Source of the DNA: Patescibacteria group bacterium
GTDB lineage: Bacteria > Omnitrophota > Gorgyraeia > Gygaellales > Profunditerraquicolaceae
Direction: 5' to 3'
Assembly: GCA_035506195.1 (NCBI GenBank)
Contig: DATJPV010000001.1
Span: forward strand, 1 to 60,557
Length of the DNA stretch: 60,557 nt
Shown here: positions 2,511 to 60,557 of the stretch, in pieces
Position numbering within the stretch: the first letter of the stretch is position 1
How the letters are laid out: every line of letters begins with the position of its first letter
Notes under the pieces: model-generated
What the model was told of the DNA's origin: nothing
What the model saw: only the letters and a program-made list of their open reading frames with translations
Database searches by the model: none
Position numbers and translations under genes: made by a program

Positions 2511-2527
2511 GACGCAAGGGCTGATCG

Positions 2528-7118: not shown

Positions 7119-7173
7119 AGCCCGGGTCTTTCTTCTGTTATGCTAGAGAATCGGGGACAGGCAGGCGATACGT

Positions 7174-10174: not shown

Positions 10175-10226
10175 TTCGTCTGGCTCCGTAACGCTACAGT
10201 GTGTTTCATTATACCACGGAGAGTTG

Positions 10227-13870: not shown

Positions 13871-13887
13871 GTCAGCTCACCGCCATC

Positions 13888-37691: not shown

Positions 37692-37721
37692 GGGTTGCCG
37701 CGCACGCTTCCGCCGCCGGGC

Positions 37722-45089: not shown

Positions 45090-45330
45090 CAGCCTGAATC
45101 ACGATCGTCTTCTGCACAGATAAAGGTAGACTCCCCAAGGCCTGGTGTGCCGTACCATCCTGCGGCGCATGTTTTTTTAAAGTCCAGGCGAATTGCACAT
45201 TACGCGCATATGCATACATAACGATGCCCGTAAGAAGCGCGACCAAAAAAAGGCTGGCCATCGCCTCGGCAACGCCGGGCGTATTCAAAACCTTCCCCCT
45301 GCTTCTTGGGATGATGGGCCGTATGCGCAT
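45067..45330 (-). CDS. Hypothetical small single-pass membrane protein (87 aa)
   Basis: Its ATG shares one base with the asnB stop (TGATG). One TM helix is present (MASLFLVALLTGIVMYAYA). No recognisable family. Confidence 0.4.
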   Translation of the reverse strand: MRIRPIIPRSRGKVLNTPGVAEAMASLFLVALLTGIVMYAYARNVQFAWTLKKHAPQDGTAHQALGSLPLSVQKTIVIQADVDTQTR

Positions 45331-47210: not shown

Positions 47211-47212
47211 GG

Positions 47213-48712
47213 TTATTCTGACTCTTCTAACTTATAAACCCAATAAATCCGCCCGGAAAAAATCCGCCTGTACGTAACCTTGCCGATGTGCTCTTCCTGC
47301 AAGAAAAGGGGGTCAATAAACCTTAAAGACCTGCCTTCGGGGGCATATACGATGTAGGCAAAGCGGCCGTTACCCATCAGGTTCAACAGATGGCTCTTGC
47401 ATTTAGCCAGGCCTTGACCCTTTTTTACGCGGTGGCCAAAAACTTCGATTTCATCGGCTATCTTAAACCGGTGCGCGGCAAGCCCCGTACCGACGATGAT
47501 GTGTTCGGGATACCAGTTCATGTAGTCCGTATCAATCAGGATCTGTTTATCGGCGGCGGTATCCCCCAGAAGGGCGGGGATGTTTTTTATCTCAAGTGGC
47601 AGCGAAAAGGACTGTGCGATGGTATCCTGGTTGGTGATATATTTGACCCCGAACAACACCGCGTATATGCACAATATGCTGATGAACAGGGCTTGGGTGT
47701 GCTGGCTCTTGAAGTCATCAAAGAAATAGAGGAGCCCCACGGCTTCGTAGATGACAAGAAACAGGCCAAAGGTAAGAAAATACTTGGGGTCCCAGGAAAG
47801 GGTCCCTCCTGCAATCTTGATGCTAAAAGCGGTCACAAAGGAAACGAAGATAATATTGAGGACGCGCATCCGCACATCCTTGAGAGAAATCAGAAAGCCC
47901 ACCCCCCCGAATAACAGAAGGGGCAAGGAAAAAACCCGGGTAATTTTTTCGATGACGCACTCAAGACGGCAGCCGCCGAGTTGATTGAGGCGCGAGTAAT
48001 ATGCGTGCCAGGTGTAGGAAAACAGGGGATCGCCGAATTTGAAGATGCATACCAGCATCCAGGCCAGCGGCAACAGAAACGACACTGATGCAAACAGAAA
48101 GAAGGGTTTCTTGTTCTTTCCTGCGACCAGAATTGCGCTCAACAGGATCGCATACAATAGGCCTTCAAACCGGAAACCAAAAGAACAGCTCGTCAGTACC
48201 GCGGAAAGGGCCAGGTACCGCATTGCCTTTGACTCGCACTGGTACCGTAGAAAGAAATACAGCGCATAGAATATAACGCAATAGAACGGCATATCTTCCA
48301 GGGAGAGAGTGCTATAGATAATGTGCAGCGGAGAAACCGCCAACAGCAGCATCGCCAGAAGCGCGCTGTCTTTACCCTTGACGAGCTTGACTATCAGAAA
48401 GAAAGGAACCAGGGTCAACATTCCCAGGAGGACCGCCAACAGGCGGGGGGCGGAAATAATATCATGGCATATGCCAAGCCAGGCGCGCAATACATACGGA
48501 TACAGCGGAGGTATGAAGGGGTCCAGGATCCCGTAATCGGCGGCCTTAAACTGCAGTTGTTGGGCATACACAATCCGCTGGGCAGGCAGCACACCGGAAA
48601 AATTATCGGTCAGAAAAACAAAGGTCAGCCTCAGGAACAAGGCCAGGGCGACAATAAAAAGGAACCCCAACGCGCTGTTATCTTTCGGTTTTATATCCGT
48701 CCCATTCGTCAT
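47213..48712 (-). CDS. PMT_2/ArnT-like GT-C polytopic membrane glycosyltransferase with a C-terminal soluble domain
   Basis: The start is refined to the ATG at 48710-48712 (MTNGTDIKPKDNSALGFLFIVALALFLRL). It contains DPFIPPLYPYVLRAWL (PPLY-type motif) and at least 10 TM segments. Confidence 0.6.
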   Translation of the reverse strand: MTNGTDIKPKDNSALGFLFIVALALFLRLTFVFLTDNFSGVLPAQRIVYAQQLQFKAADYGILDPFIPPLYPYVLRAWLGICHDIISAPRLLAVLLGMLTLVPFFLIVKLVKGKDSALLAMLLLAVSPLHIIYSTLSLEDMPFYCVIFYALYFFLRYQCESKAMRYLALSAVLTSCSFGFRFEGLLYAILLSAILVAGKNKKPFFLFASVSFLLPLAWMLVCIFKFGDPLFSYTWHAYYSRLNQLGGCRLECVIEKITRVFSLPLLLFGGVGFLISLKDVRMRVLNIIFVSFVTAFSIKIAGGTLSWDPKYFLTFGLFLVIYEAVGLLYFFDDFKSQHTQALFISILCIYAVLFGVKYITNQDTIAQSFSLPLEIKNIPALLGDTAADKQILIDTDYMNWYPEHIIVGTGLAAHRFKIADEIEVFGHRVKKGQGLAKCKSHLLNLMGNGRFAYIVYAPEGRSLRFIDPLFLQEEHIGKVTYRRIFSGRIYWVYKLEESE

Positions 48713-50084
48713 TGGCGAACACCTTTCTCCTCTTGCCGGAGCTGACCGATCTTTGCACAAGGTCGCGGAACGTGCCGGACTTCTTGTACACGAACACATA
48801 GTCAGATTCCTCGAGGTATTGGTTTATATCCACCCTCCCCTGCATGACCCCCAGATGATCGTACTCCATTACCTGGTCGATACCTAAGTTGGCATTGAGC
48901 GCGATAAAAGGATGGTATATGCCGCATTCCAGAAGCAGCCTATCCGTCTTACGGGTATGATGCGCCATCCACGATATCATCTCGATCAACGGACCGGAGA
49001 CGGCTATTCTCTTGGAGAAAAACGCAAGGGTCCCGACTGAAAAAGCCGTACAGGCAATAATTACCGCCCATGCAAAAGCTTTGCGATAATGGCCGTACGC
49101 ATAATCGATAGAGACGGCGGCGAGCGGCAGGCATAACAGGCCCAATACCAGGGAGTACCTGCTGATATAATACGCATACGTACCGCCGAGGCTGCGCAAT
49201 TCAAAAATCAGGAAAGTCGGGATGAACAAGAGCAGGAAGAAAAGGCTGCGCGGCCTTTTGCGCATCGATAGAATACCCCCTCCCAGCGCGGCGATGCACA
49301 CGGGCAAGGTGAGCGTTATTCCCAGGACCTTAAAAAACCCCAGCCCTCTACGGAGAAAATTGATACCACGCATCTGTGCCTCGGTGACGGAGGCGGCCGT
49401 CGTCGCGAAAGTCAGGGGGTCGCCGGTTTGGATATAGTTAAGCAGCAGCCACGCTGCCGGGAAAAAAGAGGCCAGGAGAAAAAACAGGCATGCCTGCCGC
49501 AAGGGCTTTCCTCGAAGTAATAACAGCCCCGCAAAAAGCAACGCAAAAAGCCAGCACTCAAACCTTAACATGCCCGCTAAATTCAAGGATATCGCCGAAA
49601 CCACCAGGTAGCCGATCCTGTCTTTTCTTGCGAATGCCTCGCAATAGTATAAGGAAGCAAACAGTAAAAAATACGCCATGGTTTCCGGAAGGCTCACCGA
49701 ACTTAAATGGATGTGCAACGGGTATATGGCCAAGAGAAAGGCGCCAAAGAGGGCAATGCGAGTGCCGAGGGTCCCGCGTATCGTCTCGAAATAAAGCGCG
49801 ATGAAGGCGACTCCAAAGACAAGGCTGACCAGGCGGGACACCAAGACCATCTGTGCCATGCTTAAAAAGGATAAGGCGGAAATAAGCCAAGTATGCAGAG
49901 GGCCGAAATTCAAGTCCGGCACGATACGGCCCGCGTGCAACCAGCGCAGGGCCAAGTTTATTTTCGACCAAGGCTCATCTCCTTCCAGGTCCATATTATA
50001 CGTATTGACGCCAAAATACCAGATGCGCAGCGCCGCCCCCAAAGCAAAAATGCAAATAGCGATGATTAATTGTTTTTTTGACAT
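48678..50084 (-). CDS. PMT_2/ArnT-like GT-C polytopic membrane glycosyltransferase
   Basis: The first loop reads NMDLEGDEPWSKINLALRWL (acidic DE motif), followed by FGPLHTWLISA and at least 10 TM segments. It overlaps the upstream carbamoyltransferase by 19 nt. Confidence 0.65.
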   Translation of the reverse strand: MSKKQLIIAICIFALGAALRIWYFGVNTYNMDLEGDEPWSKINLALRWLHAGRIVPDLNFGPLHTWLISALSFLSMAQMVLVSRLVSLVFGVAFIALYFETIRGTLGTRIALFGAFLLAIYPLHIHLSSVSLPETMAYFLLFASLYYCEAFARKDRIGYLVVSAISLNLAGMLRFECWLFALLFAGLLLLRGKPLRQACLFFLLASFFPAAWLLLNYIQTGDPLTFATTAASVTEAQMRGINFLRRGLGFFKVLGITLTLPVCIAALGGGILSMRKRPRSLFFLLLFIPTFLIFELRSLGGTYAYYISRYSLVLGLLCLPLAAVSIDYAYGHYRKAFAWAVIIACTAFSVGTLAFFSKRIAVSGPLIEMISWMAHHTRKTDRLLLECGIYHPFIALNANLGIDQVMEYDHLGVMQGRVDINQYLEESDYVFVYKKSGTFRDLVQRSVSSGKRRKVFANDEWDGYKTER

Positions 50085-51769
50085 ACTAGAAAATTATTCA
50101 AAACCAGGTAATCCAGGCCGCACTCCAGGAAAGATCGCATGGCGTCACCGGGAGAACACACAATCGGCTCTTCGTGCCGGTTAAAGCTGGTATTAATGAC
50201 GGTCGAGGTGCCCGTGCGTTTTTCATATTCCCGCATGATCGCACACAACCTGGGGTTGTCTTGCGCATGCAGGATCTGCGGCCGGGCCGTCCCGTCGATA
50301 TGAACCGCCCCGGGGCACCTTTCTTTCATTGCCGGAGCGCAATCTACCGCTATGTTCATAAAACGCAAGGTATAGCCGATCTTGTTTATGCCGGTATACA
50401 GGCTTTCGGCTTCCTCGAAAAGGCTCACCGGCGCAAATGGCATAAAACGTTCCCGTGCCAGTTTCCTGTTGAGCCATTCTAAACAGGTAGGGTCATCCGC
50501 GCGATATAAAATTGAGCGGTTGCCCAAGGCGCGCGGCCCATACTCCATCCCTGCGTTAAAATGAGCTACGGTTTTGCCTTGCGCAAGAAGCTCGGCCACG
50601 CGGACGCAAAGGGCCTCTTCTTCCATCAACAGGTGCGTCAGGCCGGCGCCTCCCAGAAGCCGCTGGATATATGCAGTGGCATACGCCGGCCCCCAATATA
50701 TCTGTTTCAGGTAAAACGGGTCCGGCCTAAAGAAAGCGCATACCGCCCCTAACGCAAGCCCGCCATCCCCCATGTGCGGGAAAATATATAGCCTGTCTAC
50801 GTGCCGGCTCTGGCTTATCTTGCGGTTCACGCTCACATTCGCAAACGCGCCCCCGGCTACACAGACATTGCGTATGCCGGTTACCTTGACCCAAAAGTCT
50901 ATAAATGCGGCGATTTGGCTTTCGAAATTGTTTTGAAACGCATAGGCTATATCTTCGCGCGCATATCCGCCGAGCTCCCGGTAAAGCCGATTACTGCGCC
51001 GTTCTTTTAGAAAATGGTTTTTGAGATTAAACGCTCCTCTCTTTTCCACAAAGCGCAGCTGTTTTTCTGCAATCTGCCGTATCCGCGGATGCGGTTTTCC
51101 GTAGCCCGCAAGGCTGGTGATTTTACCTTCATGGGCAAGCGGCCGAAATCCCAGGAATTCCGTTAACCGTGAATAATAGACACTGATGGAACTGAACCCG
51201 TTCTGAGAAAATATCCTGGTAATCGTGTTGTGCCTGCCGATGTTGACGGTGACGCTCAAGGCGTCCCCCATGGCGTCAATGGTAATAATCAATGCGTCGT
51301 CTTGCGCGCCCGAGGTATAATACGCGCTGGAGGCGTGGGCATGGTGATGTTCAATACCGATCACCGGGGCTTTTATGTTCAACTGCCGGAGCCTGCCCCG
51401 GATGATTTTTTCCGAACAGAGCCGTTCCAGAGCTTGAGGGACCTTGAGGGTATGTGCCAGGACCTGATATACGATATACGCATTTAAAAGGTAGCTAAAA
51501 GACGAGCTCTTCCTGCGTAAGGAGTCGTGAGAAGCCTCCCATAGCCGCAACAGGGTTGCAGGCGTCATTTCCGACCCCAGCAAAATGAGGTCGATCTGGT
51601 GGGGCTTGATCCCGGCATCCTCCATGGCCCTTTCGATAGACAGGTGCGGAAAGCCTCCTTTAAGCTTTTGGCGTGCGAGCCTCTCTTCGTTCATGGCCGA
51701 AATAATCCGGCCGTCCCTCCACAGGCATACGCCGCTATCGTGGTTATCGGAAATACCAAGCGCGATCAT
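50066..51769 (-). CDS. Carbamoyltransferase (NodU/CmcH family), second copy
   Basis: MIALGISDNHDSGVCLW, HHHAHASSAYY, GPRALGNRSILYRA, INTSFNRHEEPIV. Length is 567 aa. Confidence 0.9.
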   Translation of the reverse strand: MIALGISDNHDSGVCLWRDGRIISAMNEERLARQKLKGGFPHLSIERAMEDAGIKPHQIDLILLGSEMTPATLLRLWEASHDSLRRKSSSFSYLLNAYIVYQVLAHTLKVPQALERLCSEKIIRGRLRQLNIKAPVIGIEHHHAHASSAYYTSGAQDDALIITIDAMGDALSVTVNIGRHNTITRIFSQNGFSSISVYYSRLTEFLGFRPLAHEGKITSLAGYGKPHPRIRQIAEKQLRFVEKRGAFNLKNHFLKERRSNRLYRELGGYAREDIAYAFQNNFESQIAAFIDFWVKVTGIRNVCVAGGAFANVSVNRKISQSRHVDRLYIFPHMGDGGLALGAVCAFFRPDPFYLKQIYWGPAYATAYIQRLLGGAGLTHLLMEEEALCVRVAELLAQGKTVAHFNAGMEYGPRALGNRSILYRADDPTCLEWLNRKLARERFMPFAPVSLFEEAESLYTGINKIGYTLRFMNIAVDCAPAMKERCPGAVHIDGTARPQILHAQDNPRLCAIMREYEKRTGTSTVINTSFNRHEEPIVCSPGDAMRSFLECGLDYLVLNNFLVCQKNN

Positions 51770-51775
51770 TCCTCT

Positions 51776-53209
51776 TTACGCTTTCTCCCAGAGCATGTCG
51801 GCAAGCGCCCCCAGGGCCCTGGGCAGTTCCGCAACGGATTTCATCTTTGCGATGAACCTGATGATGGAGCGCGGATGCAGGTAAAATTTCAAATATGCCT
51901 TCCGCGCCAAGGCGCGAATGTCTTTTCTTGTAAGGCAGGTACCCACAACCGGAAGATGAAAGCCCTTTTCCGGTGCGATAGTGTATTCCCGCCAATAATC
52001 ATGCCCTGTATCCTTGAGCACCTGTTCATACAACGCTGTCTGGGGAGGATAGAAAATCGGCGCAATCTGCGCATAATCAAGGGGCAGGCTTGCCAATAAC
52101 TGCGCAGTCTGCGCCACGGTCTGCGTTGTTTCCCCCGGCGCGCCGATGATAAAGAAACCGAACGTCTCGATGCCGATTTTCTTGGTATACGCAACTTCCC
52201 TCTTGATGCGCTCCAGATCCATGTTCTTGCGTATGTTCTTTAATACCTCGGGGGAGCCGCTCTCGATGCCATAATATATCCTTAGACATCCGGCCTGCTT
52301 AAGGGCCCGAAGGGATTCCTCGTCCATAAGGTCGGCCCTGGTCCGCAAAGACCAGTGCACCTTGATGCTCCTTTTGTTGATCAGGTCGCATATCTGCAAT
52401 AACCTGATCCTGTCAACGGAAAAAATGCCATCGAACATATCGATCTCATTAATGCCGAATTCTTTAACGCAGCTGTCGATCTCATTCACTACCCTGCGGG
52501 GACTCATCGCCCTGTAGGGGATGCAATGATTATCGCAAAAGGTGCACTCAAAGACGCACCCCCTGCTGGTGGTCATGGCGGTGAAATTCTTATACTGCGA
52601 GATGAAAGAGTAGTACAACGAATTGTCGAGCAGATGGCGGGCAGGGAAGGCGACGGTATCCAAATCCCGCACGTATGAGGCAGGATTGATGATTGCCGCC
52701 CCGTCGTCGTCGCGCCAGGCAACGCCGCCAATGCCGCGGATATCCGCACCGCTTGCCAGGGCGCTTAACAAAAGAGGCAGCGCTTCTTCCGCGTCGCCGA
52801 TAACGCAATAGTCGATCTGGCGGTGAGTCAATATTTCGGCCGGGTATGCGCGCGCATGCGGTCCGCCGACAATGATCGGCGTGCGCAGGCGCAGGCGTAT
52901 GCGCCGTATCCATTCCAGGGTAAAGTGAAACTGGTATGTCGAAAGCGTAAATCCCAGAAAATCGGGACCGAACTCTTCGATCTTCCCGATTGCCTCATCG
53001 ACGCCTATTCCCGAGGCATTGGCATCGATAATCTGCACGCGGCAGCGATGCTTCTCCAGCGCTGCCGCTACTGCGCAGAGGCTTAAAGGCGTGATTTTGC
53101 CTAAATTTTTTTTTGCAGAAGCCAAAAAAACGGTATCATGGCTTTCCCGGTACGGAGGAAACACCAGGCACACTTTCATGCCGCCTAAATCGACCGATCT
53201 ATCGTTCAT
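51776..53209 (-). CDS. B12-binding-domain radical SAM enzyme
   Basis: N-terminal Rossmann-like module (KVCLVFPP...LSLCAVAAAL...FLGFTL...IIVGGPHA) followed by TSRGCVFECTFC (CxxxCxxC). Confidence 0.85.
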   Translation of the reverse strand: MNDRSVDLGGMKVCLVFPPYRESHDTVFLASAKKNLGKITPLSLCAVAAALEKHRCRVQIIDANASGIGVDEAIGKIEEFGPDFLGFTLSTYQFHFTLEWIRRIRLRLRTPIIVGGPHARAYPAEILTHRQIDYCVIGDAEEALPLLLSALASGADIRGIGGVAWRDDDGAAIINPASYVRDLDTVAFPARHLLDNSLYYSFISQYKNFTAMTTSRGCVFECTFCDNHCIPYRAMSPRRVVNEIDSCVKEFGINEIDMFDGIFSVDRIRLLQICDLINKRSIKVHWSLRTRADLMDEESLRALKQAGCLRIYYGIESGSPEVLKNIRKNMDLERIKREVAYTKKIGIETFGFFIIGAPGETTQTVAQTAQLLASLPLDYAQIAPIFYPPQTALYEQVLKDTGHDYWREYTIAPEKGFHLPVVGTCLTRKDIRALARKAYLKFYLHPRSIIRFIAKMKSVAELPRALGALADMLWEKA

Positions 53210-54149
53210 AAAACTCCACCTCTATATGCCCGAGAGCCGGGGCATTTTTGAAATATAGATAAAAAGAGCGGGATATATAGAGGACGGCGCTGAGCACGAA
53301 TACATACACGCCCAACAAGGCAATAGCAAAATGCATTATCGCAGTCTGGGGATAGCGCCCCAGTTCAATGATCCCGTTGATGAAGCCGTAAGAAAAGACC
53401 ACAAAGGAAAGGAATCCCGAAATGAATAGGAAGCGGTTTGAATTTTTCTCGAAAAAATTTATCTTAACGATCTCGAAAATGACCTCCAGGATCCGCGAGG
53501 GGCCGTACTTTGTTTTCCCGTACATCCGCCTGCGATGGGCCACCCTTATCTCGGTTACCCGCGCCCCATTGAGATGAAAGTAGAGCGGCAAGATTCTATG
53601 CATCCCTTGTTGAAAGACCATTCTTGAGGCAAGGTTTTTTTTAAAGATCTTCAGAGAACAGCCGATATCCCTGAATTTGCTGCCGCAGAGAAAACGCAGC
53701 AATACATTCGCTACGGCGGAAGGAAAAATCTTCGAAAAGAACGGATCCTGCCTCCTGTAGCGCACCCCCTGGACCAAATCATACCCTTCGTCAAGCTTCT
53801 GTAGCAGGCGCGGGATATCGGCGGGGTCATTCTGCAAATCTCCGTCCATGAATACGACGACCGGGAAGCGGCTATGATCCAGGCCTGCCTTAAAGGCGAA
53901 CGATTGCCCCAAGTTCCTGGGGAGATTGATTATCTTTGCATAGCGGGCAGGCGCACTGGCCAGCGCCTGGCGAAGCCTTGCATACGTGGCATCCGTACTG
54001 CCGTCGTTGACATACACCAGTTCATACCGGTAGCCGGCCACCGCAGAAAGCAATTGTGCATGAAGAAAGCAGACGTTGTCCTGCTCGTTATAAAACGGTA
54101 TGACAATGGAAAGTTCCGCGGGGCTTTTATTGTCTTGTGGCATCGGCAT
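53199..54149 (-). CDS. GT2 polyprenyl-phosphate glycosyltransferase (GtrB/ArnC/Dpm1-like) with a C-terminal two-TM hairpin
   Basis: The start is refined to the ATG at 54147-54149. It carries LSIVIPFYNEQDNV, VNDGSTD and FMDGDLQNDP (DxD). Two C-terminal TM helices are present (FLFISGFLSFVVFSYGFINGII; FAIALLGVYVFVLSAVLYI). Confidence 0.8.
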   Translation of the reverse strand: MPMPQDNKSPAELSIVIPFYNEQDNVCFLHAQLLSAVAGYRYELVYVNDGSTDATYARLRQALASAPARYAKIINLPRNLGQSFAFKAGLDHSRFPVVVFMDGDLQNDPADIPRLLQKLDEGYDLVQGVRYRRQDPFFSKIFPSAVANVLLRFLCGSKFRDIGCSLKIFKKNLASRMVFQQGMHRILPLYFHLNGARVTEIRVAHRRRMYGKTKYGPSRILEVIFEIVKINFFEKNSNRFLFISGFLSFVVFSYGFINGIIELGRYPQTAIMHFAIALLGVYVFVLSAVLYISRSFYLYFKNAPALGHIEVEFYER

Positions 54150-55836
54150 TGAGAAATGTGTCAAACCCCAAGTTGCGTAATTCTTGGGAGATCGCCAGCA
54201 GGCTTTGATGGTTATCGCAGTGTTGGCAATGCTGGTCATATAACGTCACGCCGTTTGAGAACACAAAGTCTGCGTTACGCTTCAGGTGCTTTGCTTTTAC
54301 CCTGTAGCTGCGGTAATCCCGGGATTCCCACAGGTCTTTGAAAGATTGCCGGTCCAAGTGTCCGGTGGTCCGCAAATGACAACAGAGGCTGGCATCATAC
54401 TGGGCCGGGATAAGGCAGAAATACCATCCGATCATGCACCCCTGTTGGGAAAAGACATCTTTTGACCAGGCGCCGGTATCGCGGTCATAGTGCCCAAGTT
54501 GAAAGAAAATATTATCGATGAATTCAACGCGGTGTCTCTTGAGGATCCTGGCGCATGCCGGCAGGTCTTTTTTGATGCTGCGCACGTGCGTATCTTGGAG
54601 TTTAAGCGACGCGTTGTTGGCGTCGAGCCGTATCAGATAAAAACGGCTGGCATCCGCTCCGATAGACGCATCGAGTCTGGCCATGGCAACGAGCTCGTGA
54701 TAATTAAGCGCATGGATCACATGGGTCATAATCAGCCGCGGCTCGGTTTTGTTCAGCCCTTTTCTTATCGCAAGGAGCCTCTTCAAATTCTCTACGGTAA
54801 CGTCGAACATTGCTTCGGTCCCCCTGGTCGTTACCTGCCTATATGTCTGGGCGGTGCCCGCGGGCAGGCTGCAGTATATCCCCTGCACGCCCAATTCCAC
54901 GGCCTGGCGCGCCTTGGGCTCGTCAAGGAGCGAACCGTTGGTAAAGAACGTGACCTCGATACCTTTGGCGCGGGCGTAGCTGACCATGTCAAAAAAAGCA
55001 CCGCACAGCAGCGGCTCTCCGTCCCCTTGCAAGATAATGGTATCGGTACGCAGGCGCGCAGCGTCATCAACGATGCGGGTGAAGATACCGTAATCGAATT
55101 GGCGGTCAAGGAATGCCTGCGGGTGGCGTATGCGCGGATTGTGCACGAAACAATGCGCACACTCTAGATTGCATTTATGATACGGATCAAACACTATCGT
55201 CTGCGGCCCGATAAAGGCATGTTCCGTAACAATGCCCAGAAGGCGCAGAAGCCCCTTTTCGGAGACCTTGCCCCGTTGCGCGTGAAACTGAACCAGCTGA
55301 AGGAGCTCAATCAGCTGTTCGTCGATGATGACCAGATCGATATGCGCAGGCTTAAGTTTTGTCTGTATCTGTTCTGCGTATAGGATAAAATTACGGATAA
55401 TGTCCCGGAGGGGATAAACGGCAAGCGGAGAAAACCCAATGTCCGTAGCGCCTTTAAGGCTCAACAGGGATGCGGCTATTTGGTCAAGGCAAAAGAAGTT
55501 GTACCGGCTCATACCGATCCTGCAATGGCTATCCCTGTCTTCTGATAAGGCCTCCTTAAAATTATCTACCGCTTCGGCGAAGCTTGAACCGTCGCCGGCT
55601 ATCCGCTCATGTAGTTCGGCGAAATGGCCGAAGAAATAACGCGCCCCCTGCGCACGCCGAGGTTCGAAAGAGAATAGTTGCGCAAGGGTACGCAAGTGCG
55701 CATGACCAAGCGTTAAGGTATGCAAATAATCGCGAAGCTCCCGGGGGTTACCGATGCGGACGGCAACGTCCTTGGCTCTCCTCAACGCGGTTTCAAGCTT
55801 CAGATCTCTGGTCTGTACGCCATTTGCAAGACGCAT
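54127..55836 (-). CDS. Radical SAM enzyme with a SPASM-like C-terminus and an unassigned ~200-aa N-terminal domain
   Basis: Cluster motif HKCNLECAHC and glycine-rich ILQGDGEPLL. The C-terminal Cys-rich tail reads QQGCMIGWYFC...SLCCHL...QHCQHCDNH. Confidence 0.8.
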   Translation of the reverse strand: MRLANGVQTRDLKLETALRRAKDVAVRIGNPRELRDYLHTLTLGHAHLRTLAQLFSFEPRRAQGARYFFGHFAELHERIAGDGSSFAEAVDNFKEALSEDRDSHCRIGMSRYNFFCLDQIAASLLSLKGATDIGFSPLAVYPLRDIIRNFILYAEQIQTKLKPAHIDLVIIDEQLIELLQLVQFHAQRGKVSEKGLLRLLGIVTEHAFIGPQTIVFDPYHKCNLECAHCFVHNPRIRHPQAFLDRQFDYGIFTRIVDDAARLRTDTIILQGDGEPLLCGAFFDMVSYARAKGIEVTFFTNGSLLDEPKARQAVELGVQGIYCSLPAGTAQTYRQVTTRGTEAMFDVTVENLKRLLAIRKGLNKTEPRLIMTHVIHALNYHELVAMARLDASIGADASRFYLIRLDANNASLKLQDTHVRSIKKDLPACARILKRHRVEFIDNIFFQLGHYDRDTGAWSKDVFSQQGCMIGWYFCLIPAQYDASLCCHLRTTGHLDRQSFKDLWESRDYRSYRVKAKHLKRNADFVFSNGVTLYDQHCQHCDNHQSLLAISQELRNLGFDTFLNADATRQ

Positions 55837-55839
55837 AGT

Positions 55840-56895
55840 CTAGAAAAAATAAGGGAAATCTCCTTCAAAAAAGCAATTGAGCAAAAAGTGGCAATTATGC
55901 TTACAGCCGGCGACATCCCTGCGGACCGACTTGGCTTGGTCGGAAAGCCACAGGTCCTCTACCCGGCTGGTTTTGATGGTACCCAGCCTGGCCCACCGGA
56001 AACATACAAAGACATCGCCCATGGCGCTGATATGCAGGGCCCGGGACATGTTGCACTCCGCGGTTTTGACAAATTTTGCCGGGTTGGCAAAATACGATTT
56101 AAAAGCCCTTAGCTGCGGTATCTGGTTGACGATCTTGTGCCCTTTACGCTTAAGCTCAATCAGGCGGTCTAATACCGCATGCACCTTTCGTGTGTCTTGT
56201 GGCCAAAGCTGCCGGAACGCGTCTTCTTCATACCAGCGCACCTGGGGCGGGGTATTATTGGGCTGCATCGCAGCCATAAAATATATCCACTCCAGACGCT
56301 GGTCGGCCTGCACGACATTCGTCAACTCCAGTATGTCATCCAGATTGATACCGCATATGATCGTGCATATCCCTTTTTTCAGTGACGGACAATGTGTATC
56401 CAGATGCGCTATCGCCTCCTGCGCCCTTCTATAGACGCCCGGCAGGCCCCGCACATAATCATGGGTTTCTTCCCGGAAGCTGTCCAGGGAGATGTTGATG
56501 GTGGATAATCCGGAGTCAGCAATCTCCCTGGCCTTGGCTTCGTCGATGAGGTAGGCATTGGTGGCGATGTTGGTAGTAAAACCGTTGTCTGCGGCATATT
56601 TGACCAGTTCAAGAACCCCCTCCTTTAATAACGGCTCCCCGCCTCCGAAGTTTATCAGGAACCCCTTATCCGTTATCTGCCGCAAGGACCCTATCGCTTG
56701 CTTCCATTGCGAAAGAGACGGCGGCGTATCGCCAGGCTTGACCGCGGCATCCGTCTTCCATTTACGACACATCTGGCACCTGAGCATGCATTCCTCGGTT
56801 ATGGCGAAGCAACAAAAGTTCGGCTTGGTATTCTCACCGGGAAGCCTCTCCAGCCTCTGGCATAAATCGATCAAAAATTTCTTCACCATTACCAT
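55840..56895 (-). CDS. Radical SAM enzyme with a SPASM/twitch-like C-terminus
   Basis: Contains ITEECMLRCQMC and NFGGGEPLL. The C-terminal Cys pattern is ECNMS...GDVFVCF...GCKHNCHFLLNC. Confidence 0.8.
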   Translation of the reverse strand: MVMVKKFLIDLCQRLERLPGENTKPNFCCFAITEECMLRCQMCRKWKTDAAVKPGDTPPSLSQWKQAIGSLRQITDKGFLINFGGGEPLLKEGVLELVKYAADNGFTTNIATNAYLIDEAKAREIADSGLSTINISLDSFREETHDYVRGLPGVYRRAQEAIAHLDTHCPSLKKGICTIICGINLDDILELTNVVQADQRLEWIYFMAAMQPNNTPPQVRWYEEDAFRQLWPQDTRKVHAVLDRLIELKRKGHKIVNQIPQLRAFKSYFANPAKFVKTAECNMSRALHISAMGDVFVCFRWARLGTIKTSRVEDLWLSDQAKSVRRDVAGCKHNCHFLLNCFFEGDFPYFF

Positions 56896-58145
56896 CTCCG
56901 CCGGAAGAACGCGTTATTGAAGCGGGCAGTGTTGGCGAGGGCCTGCAATGCCTTGCGCCGGGAAGGGGTCAAGCCCGCAAGCTTCTGGTGCATACATATA
57001 TTCCTGCCTACATCATCACAACTTTTATAACAACCGACGTTTTTCTCCGGGTCATTGCCGATCATCCGCAGAAGCGGCGAATCTTTTTGAGGACGCAGGG
57101 CGCACCTGCGGAACTCTCTTTGCCGGGCGTTATTCCATATCACGTCGAAATCCTCTGCATACAGATTACCGATAGGGATTCGATGCGCCTTCAGGCAGGA
57201 ATTTACGTTACCGTCGGCGATGATCCGGGCAAAGAGCCAACCGACATAACAAGGCATGGTATCGAGAAACCCCTTGTCATACTCGGCGTCGCGGCTGTGG
57301 CTGCTGGATGCGCGTCTGACAAAATGTTCGAAGTTCTCGATAATACACCTTCCTTGCGCGTCATAATAACGCCTGTCATTTTTTGCCTTATCGCACATCT
57401 GCAGCAACTGGCGGGTCTGGGGTCCATCCAGCAGCAGCCCTTCCGTACGGCCGGGGATCGTATCTACCACGGTAAACTCTACGGACTCGCAACCTGTCTC
57501 CAAAGCAAAATCTGCCATACTCAAAAACTCCGCATAATTAAGCTGGGAGATGACATTATATACCCTGACTCTCGGGAACATGTTTTTCTTGGCATTCAAC
57601 GCAATCAAGAGCCTTTTGATCCTTAAGAAGTCTTCTTCCTGCTTATTGGGGTGGGTTTTGACATAGCTTGGGCTCGTCGCGGCCCACAGGCTTACTACCA
57701 GATGATCAAGTTTGCTTTCCAGCATCCTTGCAAGGGCGGGTTCATCGGCGAGGGTAAAATTTGTGTGCAACTGACAGATGAAACCTTTTGATTTTGCATA
57801 TGCGATAATATCAAGAGCCCTGGGATGCATCAACGGTTCGCCGCCGCCGCTGAAATACAACTCCATGGTCCCCATCGCGGCAAGCTTATCGATCAACCTG
57901 ATCACCACCTCATATTCCAAGGTCTGTTTTTTGACGTCAGGGGGCGTGGCTTTATCGCCCAGGAGCGGAGAATTACACCAACAGGCAATGCAGTTGTTGT
58001 TACAGTTATTGGTGAGGTCTATCTGGACGCAGTCCGGCCCCTTATAGGCGTATTCTCCGTCAAGGATACCGATGATATTCAAAACGTTCCTTTTGACCCT
58101 GGCGATATCCGAATATTTTTTGAGGGTGCGCGCTATCTTTTTCAT
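56889..58145 (-). CDS. Radical SAM/SPASM domain enzyme
   Basis: Contains DLTNNCNNNCIACW and YFSGGGEPLMHP. The SPASM-like tail reads MPCYVGW...DGNVNSC...IGNLYAEDFDVIW...GCYKSCDDVGRNIC. Confidence 0.85.
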   Translation of the reverse strand: MKKIARTLKKYSDIARVKRNVLNIIGILDGEYAYKGPDCVQIDLTNNCNNNCIACWCNSPLLGDKATPPDVKKQTLEYEVVIRLIDKLAAMGTMELYFSGGGEPLMHPRALDIIAYAKSKGFICQLHTNFTLADEPALARMLESKLDHLVVSLWAATSPSYVKTHPNKQEEDFLRIKRLLIALNAKKNMFPRVRVYNVISQLNYAEFLSMADFALETGCESVEFTVVDTIPGRTEGLLLDGPQTRQLLQMCDKAKNDRRYYDAQGRCIIENFEHFVRRASSSHSRDAEYDKGFLDTMPCYVGWLFARIIADGNVNSCLKAHRIPIGNLYAEDFDVIWNNARQREFRRCALRPQKDSPLLRMIGNDPEKNVGCYKSCDDVGRNICMHQKLAGLTPSRRKALQALANTARFNNAFFRRRW

Positions 58146-58147
58146 TG

Positions 58148-59659
58148 TTACATGTTGGCTACATACCGTGCCGTCTTGACAAGCGTATGCAATGCGCCGT
58201 GATTTTTTATGTTGTTACACCAGGCTAGACGCAACTCTTTATCAAAGGGCATGGTAATAAGTGTTTTTTTGCTCCTTCTGTACTTTCTCCAGGCATGCAG
58301 CGCCTCCTGCCTTGCCTTTTCCAGGTCACCGGCCGCCAGGGTGGCGGTTTTGATGACGCTTCTGGAAGCGCCATCGTAATCGGACCAGTCCTGCGATACG
58401 ATATCTCCCTGTGACTGCAGGCGTCTGTAGTATGCCGTGCCCGGATAAGGCGTCAGAATGGAGAACTGCACCGTATGAGGCTCCAAGCCCATTGCAAACT
58501 CAATGGTCTTTTGGATGGTCTGTGGTGTTTCTCCGGGCAAGCCGAACACAAAGCTAAGGTGTATCTTGATGCCGAGCGCCTTCGTCAGGCGTATCATACG
58601 CGCGGACTTTTCCAGGTCCATATGCTTATCCACCGCATCCAAAAGCCCCTGGTCGGCTGATTCGACCCCGTATTTTACCGAATATAATCCGGCCCGGCGC
58701 ATTGCGGTCAATGTCTCTTCATCCATCAGGTCGGCGCGCGCCATAACCGCCCAGGGCGCCGTAAGGCCGCGGCGCTTTATCTCTGCGCATATCTCCAAGA
58801 CATGCGATTTATTAATATTGAAAGTGTCGTCGTCGAAATAGACAGATCTGAATGTACCGCCGGCGACTAAATACTCCATCTCATCTACGATTGCGCGGGG
58901 ACGACGCATGCGGTACTGATTGTTGTTATACACCAGCTGCGGCCAGGCGCAAAAGGTGCACCCGAAAGGACACCCCCGGCTAGCCAACATCTGGACGCTG
59001 GGCGTCTTCAGGTTTCCCGGAGCGTCAATATAACTGGCCATCGGCAGCCCTTCCCGTACAGGCCAGGGGAGTGCATCGAGATCGGTGATGGGGCTGCGCG
59101 CCGGATTAACCCTGATATGCCCATTATCCCGATACACAAGACCGTCTATCTTTTCTAGGCCGGCACCGCCGTGGAGGTACTCATACAGCTGCAGGCTCGT
59201 ATACTCATATTCGCCTATCATAGCGTAATCGATGAAATCATTCTGCTCAAAAAACAAGGGGGTCCGGATACTAAAATCCATGCCGCACACCGCTATCCTC
59301 ATACCGGCTCGCTTGATGCGGCGCAGGATCGCCAAATCATTCGCTAGAGAAGGAGTGGACACTTCGGCAACCAGAAGCCTGGGCTGGGCCTGGGCAACCA
59401 ATGCCGCAAAGGCATCTTCAGGAATCGCCTCAGCGATGGCATCGATGAGTTGAGCGCGTATGCCCTGCTGCAGCAACACGGCAGCAGTGTAGGCCAAAAA
59501 GAAAGGAAACGGCAGATACATCTCCTCTCCTTTGTTTTTTATGTGCGGCCATCTTGACCCTGCCCTCACCCCCCAGTTATCTCCTCGCTTCCACGGCAAA
59601 TTGACCAAGATAACCTCGGCCGGCTTCACCATCTGTCTTCGCGAATGTTTAGTATCCAT
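58148..59659 (-). CDS. B12-binding-domain radical SAM enzyme
   Basis: N-terminal Rossmann-like module (VILVNLPW...LAYTAAVLLQQG...IAVCGMD) followed by ASRGCPFGCTFC. Confidence 0.85.
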   Translation of the reverse strand: MDTKHSRRQMVKPAEVILVNLPWKRGDNWGVRAGSRWPHIKNKGEEMYLPFPFFLAYTAAVLLQQGIRAQLIDAIAEAIPEDAFAALVAQAQPRLLVAEVSTPSLANDLAILRRIKRAGMRIAVCGMDFSIRTPLFFEQNDFIDYAMIGEYEYTSLQLYEYLHGGAGLEKIDGLVYRDNGHIRVNPARSPITDLDALPWPVREGLPMASYIDAPGNLKTPSVQMLASRGCPFGCTFCAWPQLVYNNNQYRMRRPRAIVDEMEYLVAGGTFRSVYFDDDTFNINKSHVLEICAEIKRRGLTAPWAVMARADLMDEETLTAMRRAGLYSVKYGVESADQGLLDAVDKHMDLEKSARMIRLTKALGIKIHLSFVFGLPGETPQTIQKTIEFAMGLEPHTVQFSILTPYPGTAYYRRLQSQGDIVSQDWSDYDGASRSVIKTATLAAGDLEKARQEALHAWRKYRRSKKTLITMPFDKELRLAWCNNIKNHGALHTLVKTARYVANM

Positions 59660-59665
59660 CTGTCT

Positions 59666-60556
59666 TTACTCTGCGATAATCTTCTTATACACCACGACCT
59701 GATAGGCGTTGGCAAATGTAAACCTGGCTGCCTCCTGGAAAAGCCCGAGATGAGCGGCAAAGGCAGCCATGAATTTCTGTTTGCCGTCCGCCAACCGTTT
59801 CCCCTCGTTAAGCACACCCACCTGAATACGACTGACGCGGTCGATGAGGGTAAAAGTAACGGAGTTCTTAATGTTATCGGCATCGTAGACGGTCACGGTC
59901 TGGTTCAGGTAATCCTGATTCCAAACCTGGTGAGCGCCGATATAAAGATCCTCGATGCTCAAGGGGCAACCCTGATTACCGACGCAGGCACTGGCCTTGT
60001 TGACCGGGGTGCCGGTGGTGATCTCTTGGGTGAAAGCGACCATCTCGCCTGCCTTGAAATAAAAATCTTCGTAGACCGGACCGTCAGGAGCATATCTCCA
60101 GGGCTGATTGGTATCGACGATATAATCGGCGGTACGCAGGGTCTTTTCCCAGTCCGTGTCTTTACGCAAGGCAGCGTCCGCCAGGTCGCCGTGCGTAGGC
60201 GACAAAACCCATGCCCTCCCGGCGGCATAGTGCAGTTCGGCGCACAAATGGTCTCCTGCTTCTTGCGCGAATGATACGATCCTGATATCTTTTCTCGTTT
60301 CCAGGATCTCCTTCCTAAAATAGCCCAGCAAGGCCTGGAATACTTCAAACCCCTGGTCATGACGAAAAGAGAACATCGCGCCGTTGGCGTACCGCCTGAT
60401 CCGTGAAGCATCCAGGAAGGACGGGGAAAACGTCAGGGCAAATTGAGCCAGGCATACCAGGGCAACCAGGCCCAGATACGCCTTCTTCATGCGCATGGAC
60501 GAAGCGGCCAGCTCGATGCCCAGGATCAAGGAAAGGGCCGGTATGAGCGGCAGCAT
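59666..60556 (-). CDS. Partial CDS (5' end beyond the window): hydrophobic segment(s) followed by a ~250-aa soluble domain of unknown function
   Basis: The frame stays open to the window edge. The visible part has TM-like LPLIPALSLILGIELAA and AYLGLVALVCLAQFALTF, then a domain I do not recognise. A start at MRMKK (signal-peptide-like) cannot be excluded. A 6-nt gap separates it from the next gene. Confidence 0.5.
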   Translation of the reverse strand: MLPLIPALSLILGIELAASSMRMKKAYLGLVALVCLAQFALTFSPSFLDASRIRRYANGAMFSFRHDQGFEVFQALLGYFRKEILETRKDIRIVSFAQEAGDHLCAELHYAAGRAWVLSPTHGDLADAALRKDTDWEKTLRTADYIVDTNQPWRYAPDGPVYEDFYFKAGEMVAFTQEITTGTPVNKASACVGNQGCPLSIEDLYIGAHQVWNQDYLNQTVTVYDADNIKNSVTFTLIDRVSRIQVGVLNEGKRLADGKQKFMAAFAAHLGLFQEAARFTFANAYQVVVYKKIIAE

Positions 60557-60557
60557 A

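Follow-up and report, generated by a model that had tools for sequence, protein, structure and literature searches.

Radical SAM enzymes with a SPASM domain are peptide maturases in the classic cases. Precedents for radical chemistry on lipid-linked sugars are HpnJ and Cds, both of which stand for radical SAM ring contraction (PMC13459092). The locus described here comes from an uncultured, probably Omnitrophota, bacterium and combines five radical SAM enzymes with genes for the loading, modification and transfer of sugars. We read it, with even confidence, as the decorating module of a cell-envelope glycan locus, in which an envelope sugar would be tailored by radical chemistry.

Extent and gene content of the operon

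The window, that is, the whole stretch of 60,557 nucleotides that was analysed, contains a string of co-directional, tightly spaced genes extending from the end of the contig to ~36.8 kb (36813..60557, minus strand). The features considered are:

59666..60557 (-), g00: gene truncated at the contig end, of which the 3' part is present (at least 346 aa); membrane protein, probably another GT-C glycosyltransferase
58148..59659 (-), g01: B12-type radical SAM enzyme, 503 aa, CPFGCTFC (Pfam Radical_SAM 71 bits)
56889..58145 (-), g02: radical SAM/SPASM enzyme, 418 aa, CNNNCIAC (Radical_SAM 54.6 bits, SPASM 33.3 bits)
55840..56895 (-), g03: radical SAM/SPASM enzyme, 351 aa, CMLRCQMC (Radical_SAM 69.6 bits, SPASM 27.3 bits)
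54127..55836 (-), g04: radical SAM/SPASM enzyme, 569 aa, CNLECAHC, with a conserved N-terminal domain of ~200 aa (Radical_SAM 43.9 bits, SPASM 23.9 bits)
53199..54143 (-), g05: GT2 polyprenyl-phosphate glycosyltransferase (ArnC/GtrB/DPMS-like), 314 aa (Glycos_transf_2 93 bits)
51776..53209 (-), g06: B12-binding radical SAM enzyme, 477 aa, CVFECTFC (B12-binding 79 bits, Radical_SAM 86 bits)
50066..51769 (-), g07: O-carbamoyltransferase of the NodU/CmcH/TobZ family, 567 aa (Carbam_trans_N 134 bits, Carbam_trans_C 178 bits)
48678..50084 (-), g08: GT-C glycosyltransferase (PMT_2/ArnT-like), 454-468 aa (PMT_2 33.7 bits, cutoff 26.1)
47213..48799 (-), g09: second GT-C glycosyltransferase (PMT_2), 499-528 aa (PMT_2 44.9 bits)
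45330..47210 (-), g10: AsnB-type glutamine-dependent amidotransferase, 626 aa (Asn_synthase 289 bits, GATase_7 150 bits)
45067..45330 (-), g11: small single-TM protein, 73-87 aa (ORF and gene call, one hydrophobic segment)
43014..45089 (-), g12: polytopic membrane protein, 665-691 aa, with a CBM48-like module at its C-terminus (CBM_48 24.2 bits); another candidate GT-C-like transferase
40879-43017 (-): GH5-like protein (Pfam)
39764-40882 (-): GT4 (Pfam)
37722-39779 (-): membrane-anchored phosphodiesterase-family protein (Pfam)
36813-37691 (-): GT2 of the downstream core (Pfam)
25489-26859: sulfatase (Pfam)

The five co-directional radical SAM ORFs are present on the minus strand with the coordinates and CxxxCxxC motifs that the original prediction had quoted. 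Its claim that neighbouring ORFs all overlap or lie no more than 6 nt apart is true if the longest ORFs are used; with independent gene calls the widest spacing, 23 nt, separates the carbamoyltransferase from the first PMT_2 protein. The range 50066-60556 proved too small for the whole unit, which continues with the AsnB-type amidotransferase, more GT-C-like proteins, the GH5-like protein, GT4 and GT2. The two predicted PMT_2 proteins are both real, and are located at 47213-50084, just beyond that range. At the other end, an extension past 60557 had been proposed as a check; the contig (60708 bp) adds only ~150 nt, and its end cuts the first gene, g00 (59666-60556), whose gene call reaches contig position 60706. 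The encoded protein has two TM segments followed by a soluble domain of ~250 aa and a weak Pfam match to Glyco_transf_22 (Alg9-like GT-C; E 8e-4, profile positions 269-366 of 414), and from this sequence it is probably another GT-C glycosyltransferase. The same gene is found upstream of g01 in close relatives, all of whose contigs likewise end within it, a caveat on the reading proposed here.

The GT2 protein g05 is of the polyprenyl-phosphate sugar synthase type, as predicted, with a hairpin of two C-terminal TM segments and the solved relatives ArnC (2.7e-37), GtrB (1.9e-25) and DPMS (3e-19); gene calls and homologues agree on its 314-aa start. The NodU-type assignment of g07 also holds, both Pfam domains being present and the best solved relatives being O-carbamoyltransferases (7xb6, 1.4e-53; NovN; GdmN; TobZ, 4e-48). 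The GT-C proteins g08 and g09, each with ~10 TM segments, share 26% identity. An orthologue of g08 (54% identity) occupies the same position in the related locus L009, and g09 is found at the same position in L043, where the AsnB-type gene again comes after the PMT_2 pair. Protein g11 belongs to no Pfam family, and g12 has at least 10 TM segments. We note that GT-C proteins with TPR tails occur in the window. While the GT2 has its hairpin and the GT-C proteins are polytopic, none of the radical SAM proteins, the carbamoyltransferase or AsnB contains a TM segment, and these are therefore taken to be cytoplasmic. The window yielded no flippase (GtrA, ArnE/F or Wzx type), which counts against our reading.

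The radical SAM enzymes and their nearest relatives

Across the five enzymes the Pfam Radical_SAM E-values range from 4e-11 to 4e-24, so the domains are not chance matches. Two members were expected to be of the B12 type: the B12-binding domain is clear in g06 (cutoff 32.1) and sub-threshold in g01 (27.2 bits). These two proteins share 31% identity, and the long start of g01 is backed by homologues that align over 492 of its 503 residues. For both, the best PDB match is AprD4 (1e-31 for g01, 1.2e-24 for g06); the best NCBIfam match is HpnJ for g01 (256 bits versus a cutoff of 577.6), and ApyD, HpnJ and BchE for g06, all far below their cutoffs. The suggestion that the B12 enzymes would C-methylate the sugar finds no support, as HpnJ, BchE, ApyD and AprD4 are all non-methylating.

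The SPASM domains predicted in the middle three enzymes all score above the cutoff of 21.5 bits. Enzyme g02 has no PDB sequence match and meets no NCBIfam cutoff; its orthologues (41-76% identity) adjoin g04 homologues in 9 loci. Enzyme g03 (AF2 model, pLDDT 88.6) has BlsE as its top Foldseek match (9e-15, TM 0.65-0.70) and represents a family of 868 clusters at 50% identity (E <= 1e-30) with invariant cysteines in its alignment; it is this family that forms tandem arrays in relatives. Enzyme g04 (pLDDT 83.6) is closest to DesII and BlsE by Foldseek, and its 174 homologues, which come mostly from Omnitrophota, align over 85-100% of its length. Its N-terminal domain of ~200 aa, described earlier as lacking a recognised motif, is real, conserved with invariant residues, confidently modelled and mostly helical in the predicted structure, with no Pfam match even at E = 10 and no match to an RRE. 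The likeness of g03 and g04 to BlsE and DesII is barely above that to the peptide maturases SkfB, SuiB and anSME, a point against a sugar substrate. BtrN, offered earlier as the analogy, is a distant match (Foldseek rank 42, E 2e-6) and not the nearest.

A check for confident hits to characterised radical SAM families returned none: every curated NCBIfam score of the five enzymes lies below its cutoff, including those for HpnJ, HpnR, Tes, the ladderane-type B12 enzyme, AprD4, BlsE and DesII. That these families have no characterised member, with curated scores far below cutoff, also weighs against our reading.

Conservation of the cassette across Omnitrophota

The same cassette, in the same order, is found in at least 4 other metagenomic samples (L009, with 59-76% identity; L043 with L047; L044-L046; L048), which answers the question of neighbourhood conservation in the affirmative. 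The radical SAM families of the window are largely confined to Omnitrophota, where the 569-aa family is almost always located within glycosyltransferase-rich loci next to arrays in which as many as 11 old, diverged paralogues of the 351-aa enzyme are lined up. These paralogues share a median identity of 39% inside one locus, versus 62% with their best match at a different locus. GT4-family genes follow the three largest arrays, homologues of the window's glycosyltransferases are present in 20 of the 28 related loci (loci of at least 10 kb), and orthologues of the core glycan genes at 36813..43017 (46-65% identity) adjoin g04 homologues in many Omnitrophota loci. Constantly found with the 569-aa family are 351-aa-type arrays, B12-type enzymes, GT4, GT2 and the GH5-like protein. 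A cluster built around the polyprenyl-phosphate GT2 and the carbamoyltransferase, as originally proposed, is not general; these two genes belong to one lineage only.

Two fusions connect the radical SAM families with glycosyl transfer: in L036 a B12 radical SAM protein resembling g01 (45% identity) carries a GT2 domain, and in L005 a GT2 domain is joined to a radical SAM domain. Relatives also have polypeptides that combine two or three radical SAM modules. Modules of the 351-aa type are often fused there to TPR domains, which usually bind proteins, and this counts against our reading.

Candidate substrates of the radical SAM enzymes

Under the reading we favour, the ArnC/GtrB-like GT2 (g05) would move a sugar from a nucleotide donor to polyprenyl phosphate at the cytoplasmic membrane face. 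The five radical SAM enzymes (g01-g04, g06) would remodel the loaded sugar, or its nucleotide-sugar precursor, via hydrogen-atom abstraction; deoxygenation or dehydration, decarboxylation, oxidation, epimerisation and ring contraction are possible reactions, and methylation is possible but not indicated. The carbamoyltransferase (g07) would then O-carbamoylate one hydroxyl and the AsnB-type enzyme (g10) amidate a carboxylate. After flipping, the GT-C enzymes (g08, g09, probably g00 and g12) would pass the finished sugar to an extracytoplasmic acceptor made by the conserved downstream core of GT4, GT2 and Wzy-type proteins. We infer this order, the sugar substrate, the stage at which it would be tailored and each single reaction type. 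The scheme accords with the presence of the GT2 in one operon with GT-C enzymes, with BlsE and DesII as nearest solved SPASM structures, and with the radical SAM-GT2 fusions of relatives. Of the original prediction, the glycan context, the GT2 type, the co-occurrence of the genes and the lack of a characterised family stand.

Action at the level of the polymer, with each paralogue serving its own residue or position on a growing lipid-linked oligosaccharide or polysaccharide (by chain epimerisation, cross-linking or deoxygenation, for example), is rather unlikely. The many old, diverged paralogues would suit many distinct but related substrates or positions, as would the polypeptides with several radical SAM modules; the fused GT2 domains are of the type that extends lipid-linked glycans, and GT4, GT2, Wzy and the GH5-like protein are constant company. 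At the sequence level the expectation is the same as for sugar tailoring. The radical SAM genes of the window, however, flank an ArnC-type monosaccharide-carrier synthase and not chain-building transferases, and we know of no precedent for radical SAM enzymes acting on polysaccharides. Modification of a ribosomal peptide or surface protein by the SPASM-type, perhaps also the B12-type, enzymes, with subsequent glycosylation, is unlikely; it would resemble glycosylated RiPPs and the peptide-derived cofactor mycofactocin with its GT2 MftF. Besides the classic role of SPASM enzymes, it draws on Foldseek scores to SkfB, SuiB, CteB, PqqE and anSME near those of the top matches, on the TPR fusions together with the TPR-tailed GT-C proteins in the window and L005, and on a conserved micro-ORF of ~40 aa (36-49 aa) ending in (I/L)xFPGG directly 3' of the 569-aa family gene in 15-18 related loci, which makes a peptide substrate conceivable for the wider family. 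The original statement that there is no precursor holds for the window. The micro-ORF is absent from the window and its closest relatives, and most of it is a TM-like segment, unlike known leaders; as GT4 always comes next, a membrane-anchor subunit fits at least equally well. Neither in the window nor in Pfam-annotated homologous loci was a precursor, PqqD/RRE, protease (leader peptidase) or ABC exporter found, as predicted, so the context is that of a glycan and not of a RiPP. The mostly helical N-terminal domain of g04, with no RRE match, also speaks against a peptide, and to our knowledge arrays of up to 11 old, diverged radical SAM paralogues have no RiPP precedent.

Tailoring of membrane lipids or glycolipid head groups (membrane-spanning, hopanoid-like or ladderane-like), in the manner of Tes, Grs, Hbs, Hgm, HpnJ or Cds, is improbable. 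Among curated families g01 scores best against HpnJ, weak matches include the ladderane-type lipid B12 enzyme and Tes, GDGT-MAS appears in the PDB and Foldseek match lists, and membrane-spanning-lipid synthase homologues have been reported in Omnitrophota (10.1101/2023.10.20.563219). The scores nevertheless remain far below the cutoffs (HpnJ as given above; ladderane-type 115-122 versus 360; Tes 36 versus 450), the surrounding genes encode glycosyltransferases, GT-C proteins, Wzy and the GH5-like protein, and neither the window nor related loci yielded a squalene/hopene cyclase, hpnH or hpnG, or any fatty-acid, isoprenoid or glycerol-lipid genes. It is very improbable that the SPASM proteins are anSME-like maturases installing formylglycine or another cofactor modification in nearby sulfatase or alkaline-phosphatase-family proteins. 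While anSME is among the structural matches, and the window harbors a sulfatase and a Phosphodiest-family protein (L008 has several such proteins), no anSME family is among the best 25 NCBIfam matches listed for each SPASM-type enzyme, none of which meets its cutoff. The sulfatase is ~25 kb distant, 8-11 maturases per array for one or two targets would make no sense, and the B12-type partners and GT2 fusions would be unaccounted for.

For the tailoring of an envelope sugar, the up to 14 radical SAM enzymes per sugar locus in relatives point to an undescribed radical route for cell-surface glycan decoration. Among known systems, the closest solved relative of both B12-type enzymes is the aminoglycoside diol-dehydratase AprD4, which itself binds no cobalamin; the pair is nearest to AprD4, HpnJ and BchE, no methylase among these three, and HpnJ, the best curated match of g01, contracts the ring of a lipid-linked sugar. 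The closest solved structures to g03 and g04, in turn, are the sugar-modifying enzymes BlsE and DesII.

Operon structure and surrounding genes

The genes g00 to g12, numbered in the order of transcription from the contig end, are arranged as follows.

59666 to beyond 60557, minus strand: g00, membrane protein, cut by the contig end
58148-59659, minus strand: g01, B12-type radical SAM enzyme, CPFGCTFC
56889-58145, minus strand: g02, radical SAM/SPASM enzyme, CNNNCIAC
55840-56895, minus strand: g03, radical SAM/SPASM enzyme, CMLRCQMC
54127-55836, minus strand: g04, radical SAM/SPASM enzyme with N-terminal domain, CNLECAHC
53199-54143, minus strand: g05, GT2
51776-53209, minus strand: g06, B12-binding radical SAM enzyme, CVFECTFC
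50066-51769, minus strand: g07, carbamoyltransferase
48678-50084, minus strand: g08, PMT_2 GT-C protein
47213-48799, minus strand: g09, PMT_2 GT-C protein
45330-47210, minus strand: g10, AsnB-type amidotransferase
45067-45330, minus strand: g11, small single-TM protein
43014-45089, minus strand: g12, polytopic membrane protein with CBM48-like tail

The original prediction of an operon with five radical SAM enzymes is borne out, and Pfam recovers all domains that it named; both the operon structure and the domain identities are observed directly. The range first assigned to it (50066-60556) is too narrow: the two PMT_2 genes lie just outside, and the operon extends over approximately 24 kb instead of 10.5 kb. 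The junctions are indeed overlaps or gaps of a few nucleotides, but independent gene calls give a largest gap of 23 nt, where at most 6 nt had been claimed. Beyond g12, Pfam identifies on the same strand, down to position 36813, a GH5-like protein, a GT4, a phosphodiesterase-family protein, and a GT2. According to hydropathy, the radical SAM enzymes, the carbamoyltransferase, and the AsnB-type enzyme have zero TM helices. Genes for envelope glycan machinery make up most of the 60-kb contig.

Extending the operon past 60557 yields little, as the source contig (ENA ERZ27256505, 60708 bp) stops 151 nt past the window, inside g00. The truncated gene is probably a further GT-C, since its sequence weakly matches the C-terminal part of an Alg9-like GT-C domain. 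It is also the break point of all four close-relative contigs that carry g01 (L044-L047), and assembly breaks within this gene suggest a repeat or a strain-variable region.

Several other gene groups of the contig, all on the minus strand, are of note. Three genes precede a second carbamoyltransferase (384-2063; 32% identical to g07): they encode a QueC-like PP-loop protein (2528-3535) and two small membrane proteins, one of 73 aa (2289-2510) and one of the DUF5989 type (2101-2262). Both small proteins also stand ahead of distant carbamoyltransferase homologues in three related loci (L017, L029, L030), and we take the gene set at 384-3535 to resemble the SxtI/J/K arrangement. The region 5121-15906 encodes five polytopic membrane proteins with 6-9 TM segments, of which four (5121-7118, 7174-8955, 10227-12344, and 13888-15906) carry C-terminal TPR repeats in a GT-C/TMTC-like architecture; GT9 and GDSL esterase genes are scattered among them. 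A membrane-bound polyferredoxin with Fer4_5 and several 4Fe-4S motifs (17104-18603) is found next to a DUF362 protein (18613-19608) and TatC (19568-20299). That these three genes supply electrons to the radical SAM enzymes is pure speculation. The low-coordinate edge of the glycan locus (31315-34499) is formed by a lysine-2,3-aminomutase-like protein, the sixth radical SAM protein of the window, followed by two D-Ala-D-Ala-ligase-type ATP-grasp enzymes.

Family placement of the encoded proteins

The Pfam family Radical_SAM matches g01-g04 and g06 with E-values from 4e-11 to 4e-24. Pfam SPASM exceeds its cutoff in g02, g03, and g04, and the N-terminal B12-binding Rossmann domain is recognised in g06 (79 bits) and, below the cutoff of 32.1 bits, in g01 (27.2 bits). 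The complete SPASM motif comprises seven cysteines (CX9-15GX4C ... CX2CX5CX3C ... C). Of this motif, g02 and g03 (C281-X11-G-X4-C298) retain the first half. The second half deviates from the canonical pattern, reading CX3CX5C in g03 and CC...CX2C in g04. Judged by sequence identity (31% between g01 and g06, 24-26% among g02, g03, and g04), the five proteins are not recent duplicates.

None of the five reaches a curated NCBIfam cutoff. The nearest family of g01 is HpnJ (256 bits versus a cutoff of 577.6), followed by BchE, and those of g06 are ApyD, HpnJ (TIGR03471, 152 bits versus 577.6), and BchE. The proteins g02 and g04 are nearest to a tungsten-cofactor oxidoreductase maturase (87 and 107 bits versus 380), and g03 is nearest to a GeoRSP protein (94 bits versus 400). 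Membership in HpnJ, HpnR, the ladderane-type enzyme, Tes, AprD4, BlsE, DesII, PqqE, MftC, the tungsten-cofactor oxidoreductase maturase, and viperin is therefore rejected, all scores being below the NCBIfam cutoffs. HpnJ is also rejected by genomic context, as shc, hpnH, hpnG, hpnI, and hpnK were not found in the 60-kb window. The methylase families HpnR, PhpK, TsrM-type, KedN5, and RiPP C-methyltransferases all score far below their cutoffs.

AprD4 is the best match of both g01 (1e-31) and g06 (1e-24) in a PDB sequence search, in which g03 retrieves BlsE, then GDGT-MAS and DesII, and in which g02, g04, and the second PMT_2 protein find no match. AlphaFold models computed from homologue alignments are confident for g04 (pLDDT 83.6) and g03 (pLDDT 88.6). 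Using these predicted structures, Foldseek places DesII (4.5e-12) and BlsE (8e-11) at the top for g04, and BlsE (9e-15, TM 0.65-0.70) for g03; the peptide maturases SkfB and SuiB as well as anSME, PqqE, viperin, and MoaA are close behind. BtrN ranks far down, and the BtrN-like chemistry initially suggested for the SPASM-type enzymes is not the closest analogy. C-methylation by the B12-type pair is not supported, as their best matches HpnJ, BchE, ApyD, and AprD4 are all non-methylating. AprD4 possesses a Rossmann-like domain, yet does not bind cobalamin (PMC12931638).

The N-terminal domain of g04 (569 aa), isolated from three family members, has no Pfam match even at E = 10. It is mostly helical in the predicted structure and is kept throughout the alignment of the g04 family. 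Most members of the g01 family, by comparison, have 715-830 aa and an extra domain of 230-330 aa (for example L025:6273-8417 and L026:16494-18926), which is without a Pfam match, N-terminal in some members and C-terminal in others, and absent in g01 itself (503 aa).

The protein g05 consists of a Glycos_transf_2 domain (93 bits) and a C-terminal TM hairpin (269-291 and 297-326 of the 346-aa ORF). Its matches in the PDB are ArnC (2.7e-37), GtrB (1.9e-25), and archaeal DPMS (3e-19), all of them polyprenyl-phosphate sugar synthases, and its top NCBIfam families are ArnC and PgfS. The proposed polyprenyl-phosphate synthase architecture is thus confirmed by both the hairpin and the nearest relatives. 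An assignment to ArnC itself is rejected (131.9 bits versus an equivalog cutoff of 529), and g05 is of the same type only. The carbamoyltransferase g07 combines Carbam_trans_N (Kae1-like, 133.7 bits) with Carbam_trans_C (YrdC-like, 178.3 bits); its relatives in the PDB are the O-carbamoyltransferases NovN, GdmN, and TobZ, and a NodU equivalog is rejected (114 versus a cutoff of 1000). The GT-C proteins g08 and g09 match PMT_2 with 33.7 and 44.9 bits (cutoff 26.1) and have approximately 10 hydrophobic segments apiece. No flippase gene was recognised in the window.

Related loci, paralogue arrays, and fusions

Named homologues of g01, g03, and g04 are nearly all from Candidatus Omnitrophota MAGs, and from these names the window, too, probably belongs to Omnitrophota. 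The best species-representative genome is only 55% identical for g04. Searching 1.84 billion representatives with a profile of g03 yields 868 clusters (at 50% identity) with E <= 1e-30. The cassette co-occurs in relatives, as its reading as one unit supposes, with identical gene order in L009, L043-L047, and L048. The Logan contig L009 holds g01-g02-g03-g04-GT2-g06-carbamoyltransferase-PMT_2 with 54-76% identity; L043-L047 are JGI contigs and L048 is an NCBI assembly contig. A 6.5-kb piece from a second dataset (L002) is identical to the window. The g01-g04 quartet is also found in MAGs labelled archaeon, Nanoarchaeota, Woesearchaeota, or Methanosarcinales (L027, L031, L032, L034, L035, L038); these labels may reflect mis-binning, mislabelling of small-celled organisms, or horizontal transfer.

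We compared the window proteins against every ORF in a set of 37 non-redundant related loci, of which 28 have a length of at least 10 kb. Among the latter, 25 contain g03-like genes, 13 contain three or more of them, 23 contain a B12-type enzyme, and 20 contain homologues of the window glycosyltransferases. The three largest arrays are without such homologues, but are followed by GT4-family genes. L024:629-12422 consists of 11 g03-like genes in tandem, and L026:3-22537 comprises 14 radical SAM genes within 22 kb; tandem g03-like arrays also occur in L027, L031, and L020. For 82 of the 85 array domains the nearest relative resides in another locus (median identity 62%, versus 39% within the array). 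By this measure the array paralogues are ancient, each of them a conserved, distinct subfamily. The GH5-like protein, GT4, and GT2 of the window have orthologues (46-65% identity) that are constant partners across Omnitrophota, whereas the ArnC-like GT2, g07, and the PMT_2 pair are confined to the lineage of the window.

As directly observed as this conservation are several gene fusions. L036:1255-3834 encodes a g01-like B12 radical SAM protein with a C-terminal GT2 domain, and L005:14850-16760 encodes a GT2 with a C-terminal radical SAM domain. At the level of sequence, these fusions tie the radical SAM families to glycosyl transfer. Other fusions comprise three g02-like radical SAM/SPASM modules within one polypeptide of more than 1208 aa (L026:18913-22536) and TPR repeats with a g03-like module (860-980 aa, for example L003:7423-10011).

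A screen for conserved small ORFs identified a micro-ORF of 36-49 aa in 15-18 related loci, denoted FPGG after its C-terminus LKKxxKx(I/L)(I/V)FPG(G/N). Its single TM-like hydrophobic segment contains an acidic residue, and it matches no Pfam family. In all cases it is located between the g04 homologue and a GT4 of approximately 395 aa that starts with MNILMVHPHD.

Examples of the FPGG micro-ORF in related loci
L004:11710-11835
L006:11695-11817
L009:1527-1649
L012:11502-11621
L018:11528-11647
L025:12351-12488
L029:8110-8259
L042:2375-2497

A split GT4 is rejected as explanation, since the GT4 owns its first strand (MNILMVHPHD) and the stops and relative frames vary by locus. Its product may be a peptide substrate or a subunit acting as membrane anchor. 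The window lacks this micro-ORF (best hmmsearch E-value about 1), and g04 is instead followed there by the ArnC-like GT2.

Proposed function and comparison with known systems

The best-supported model, which we regard as having about an even chance of being correct, is that the radical SAM enzymes tailor a sugar within a lipid-carrier/GT-C route. The GT2 would place a sugar on polyprenyl phosphate, and the cytoplasmic radical SAM enzymes would remodel the sugar on its carrier or its nucleotide precursor. The carbamoyltransferase would then contribute a carbamoyl group and the AsnB-type enzyme an amide, and the GT-C enzymes would move the product across to the glycan of the conserved core genes, outside the membrane. 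The type of substrate, the point at which it is tailored, and all reaction types are inferred. The model is favored because protein topology, operon order, the pairing of GT2 and GT-C, and the fusions agree, and because the nearest characterised relatives BlsE, DesII, AprD4, and HpnJ are all sugar-directed.

A variant at the level of the polymer, with a lipid-linked oligosaccharide as substrate and a separate residue of it for every paralogue, is unlikely on present evidence. Modification of a peptide or protein, which we consider quite unlikely, draws on the FPGG micro-ORF of the related loci and hence stays alive for the wider family, but not for the window. The operon is without free intergenic space for a precursor gene, as had been noted from the sequence; PqqD/RRE domains were found neither in the operon proteins nor in the Pfam-annotated neighbours of homologues, and no leader peptidase or dedicated exporter was found among the window genes between 31 and 60 kb. 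Lipids as substrates are improbable, given a Tes score (tetraether/GDGT lipid; NF045702) of 36 bits versus 450 and no hopanoid or other lipid biosynthesis genes found in the window. Least probable of all, and only barely worth considering, is a role in enzyme maturation: anSME is outside the best 25 NCBIfam matches of each SPASM-type enzyme, and the nearest sulfatase is located approximately 25 kb away.

Returning to sugar tailoring, we tentatively extend the model to the phylum, though we rate the following reading at somewhat less than an even chance. Omnitrophota would harbor an unrecognised class of glycan-directed radical SAM enzymes, the result of a long-ago expansion into arrays that reach 14 genes in an envelope-glycan locus and that would act together with glycosyltransferases and GT-C proteins to give radical-installed surface sugars. 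The class would consist of three SPASM-type and two B12-type families, none of which has been curated so far, and the installed features could be deoxy, C-branched, carbocyclic, and C-C or C-O cross-linked, here also carbamoylated and amidated. In the full-text literature on Omnitrophota radical SAM and glycan genes we found no account of such clusters, and biosynthetic gene cluster surveys refer to Omnitrophota in generic terms only. To our knowledge, radical SAM enzymes act on sugars almost only as single tailoring steps in antibiotic synthesis, in addition to two genetically inferred lipid head-group enzymes. Five such enzymes in a conserved lipid-carrier/GT-C operon, together with whole envelope-glycan arrays, are unlike these cases and imply that radical chemistry may be a major, overlooked way to build bacterial surface glycans. 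Omnitrophota are a widespread, uncultured nanobacterial phylum; if the reading is true, their envelopes contain unusual sugars with a bearing on host attachment, phage resistance, and biomarkers, and carbohydrate chemistry gains several new enzyme families. The five-enzyme cassette of the window with its ArnC-like carrier synthase would be the most tractable entry point and provides concrete genes to express.

With the clusters for sactipeptides, ranthipeptides, PQQ, and mycofactocin the operon shares a radical SAM core with a Cys-rich C-terminal SPASM-like extension and structural similarity to SkfB, SuiB, and PqqE; mycofactocin clusters also combine a SPASM enzyme with a GT2. Unlike these clusters, the window is without precursor, RRE, peptidase, and exporter, the second half of the SPASM motif is non-canonical, and the neighbours are glycosyltransferases and GT-C proteins. 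Closer in function are BlsE and DesII, the nearest structures to g03 and g04, and AprD4, the nearest solved relative of g01 and g06. These enzymes and BtrN abstract H atoms on sugars or aminocyclitols. They are single enzymes of secondary-metabolite clusters that act on soluble nucleotide sugars or pseudo-oligosaccharides, not members of envelope glycan operons, and sequence identity to them is only 13-18%, with NCBIfam scores far from the cutoffs (BlsE 49.5 versus 400, DesII about 30 versus 450, AprD4 105-130 versus 500).

Lipid-bound sugars as radical SAM substrates have two precedents, HpnJ (hopanoid cyclitol ether) and the calditol synthase Cds, both known only genetically, for which a ring contraction of the lipid-attached sugar after the action of a glycosyltransferase has been proposed (PMC13459092). 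Among curated families g01 matches HpnJ best, yet with less than half of the cutoff score. In contrast to both systems, hopanoid or GDGT genes are not found nearby, the putative carrier is polyprenyl phosphate, and the product would be passed on by GT-C enzymes.

Also among the functionally closest systems is three-component lipid-carrier glycosylation, namely ArnC/ArnD/ArnT (lipid A Ara4N), GtrA/GtrB/GtrC, DPM1/PMT, and decaprenyl-phosphate arabinose with Emb/Aft. In the Arn and DprE1/E2 pathways the sugar is likewise chemically altered on its polyprenyl-phosphate carrier before GT-C transfer. We know of no such system with radical SAM enzymes, let alone five, or with a carbamoyltransferase; the operon differs from them in having both, and in that a flippase is not recognised. 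Common to all is a hairpin GT2, here nearest to ArnC, GtrB, and DPMS, together with GT-C transferases, which the window unites in one operon.
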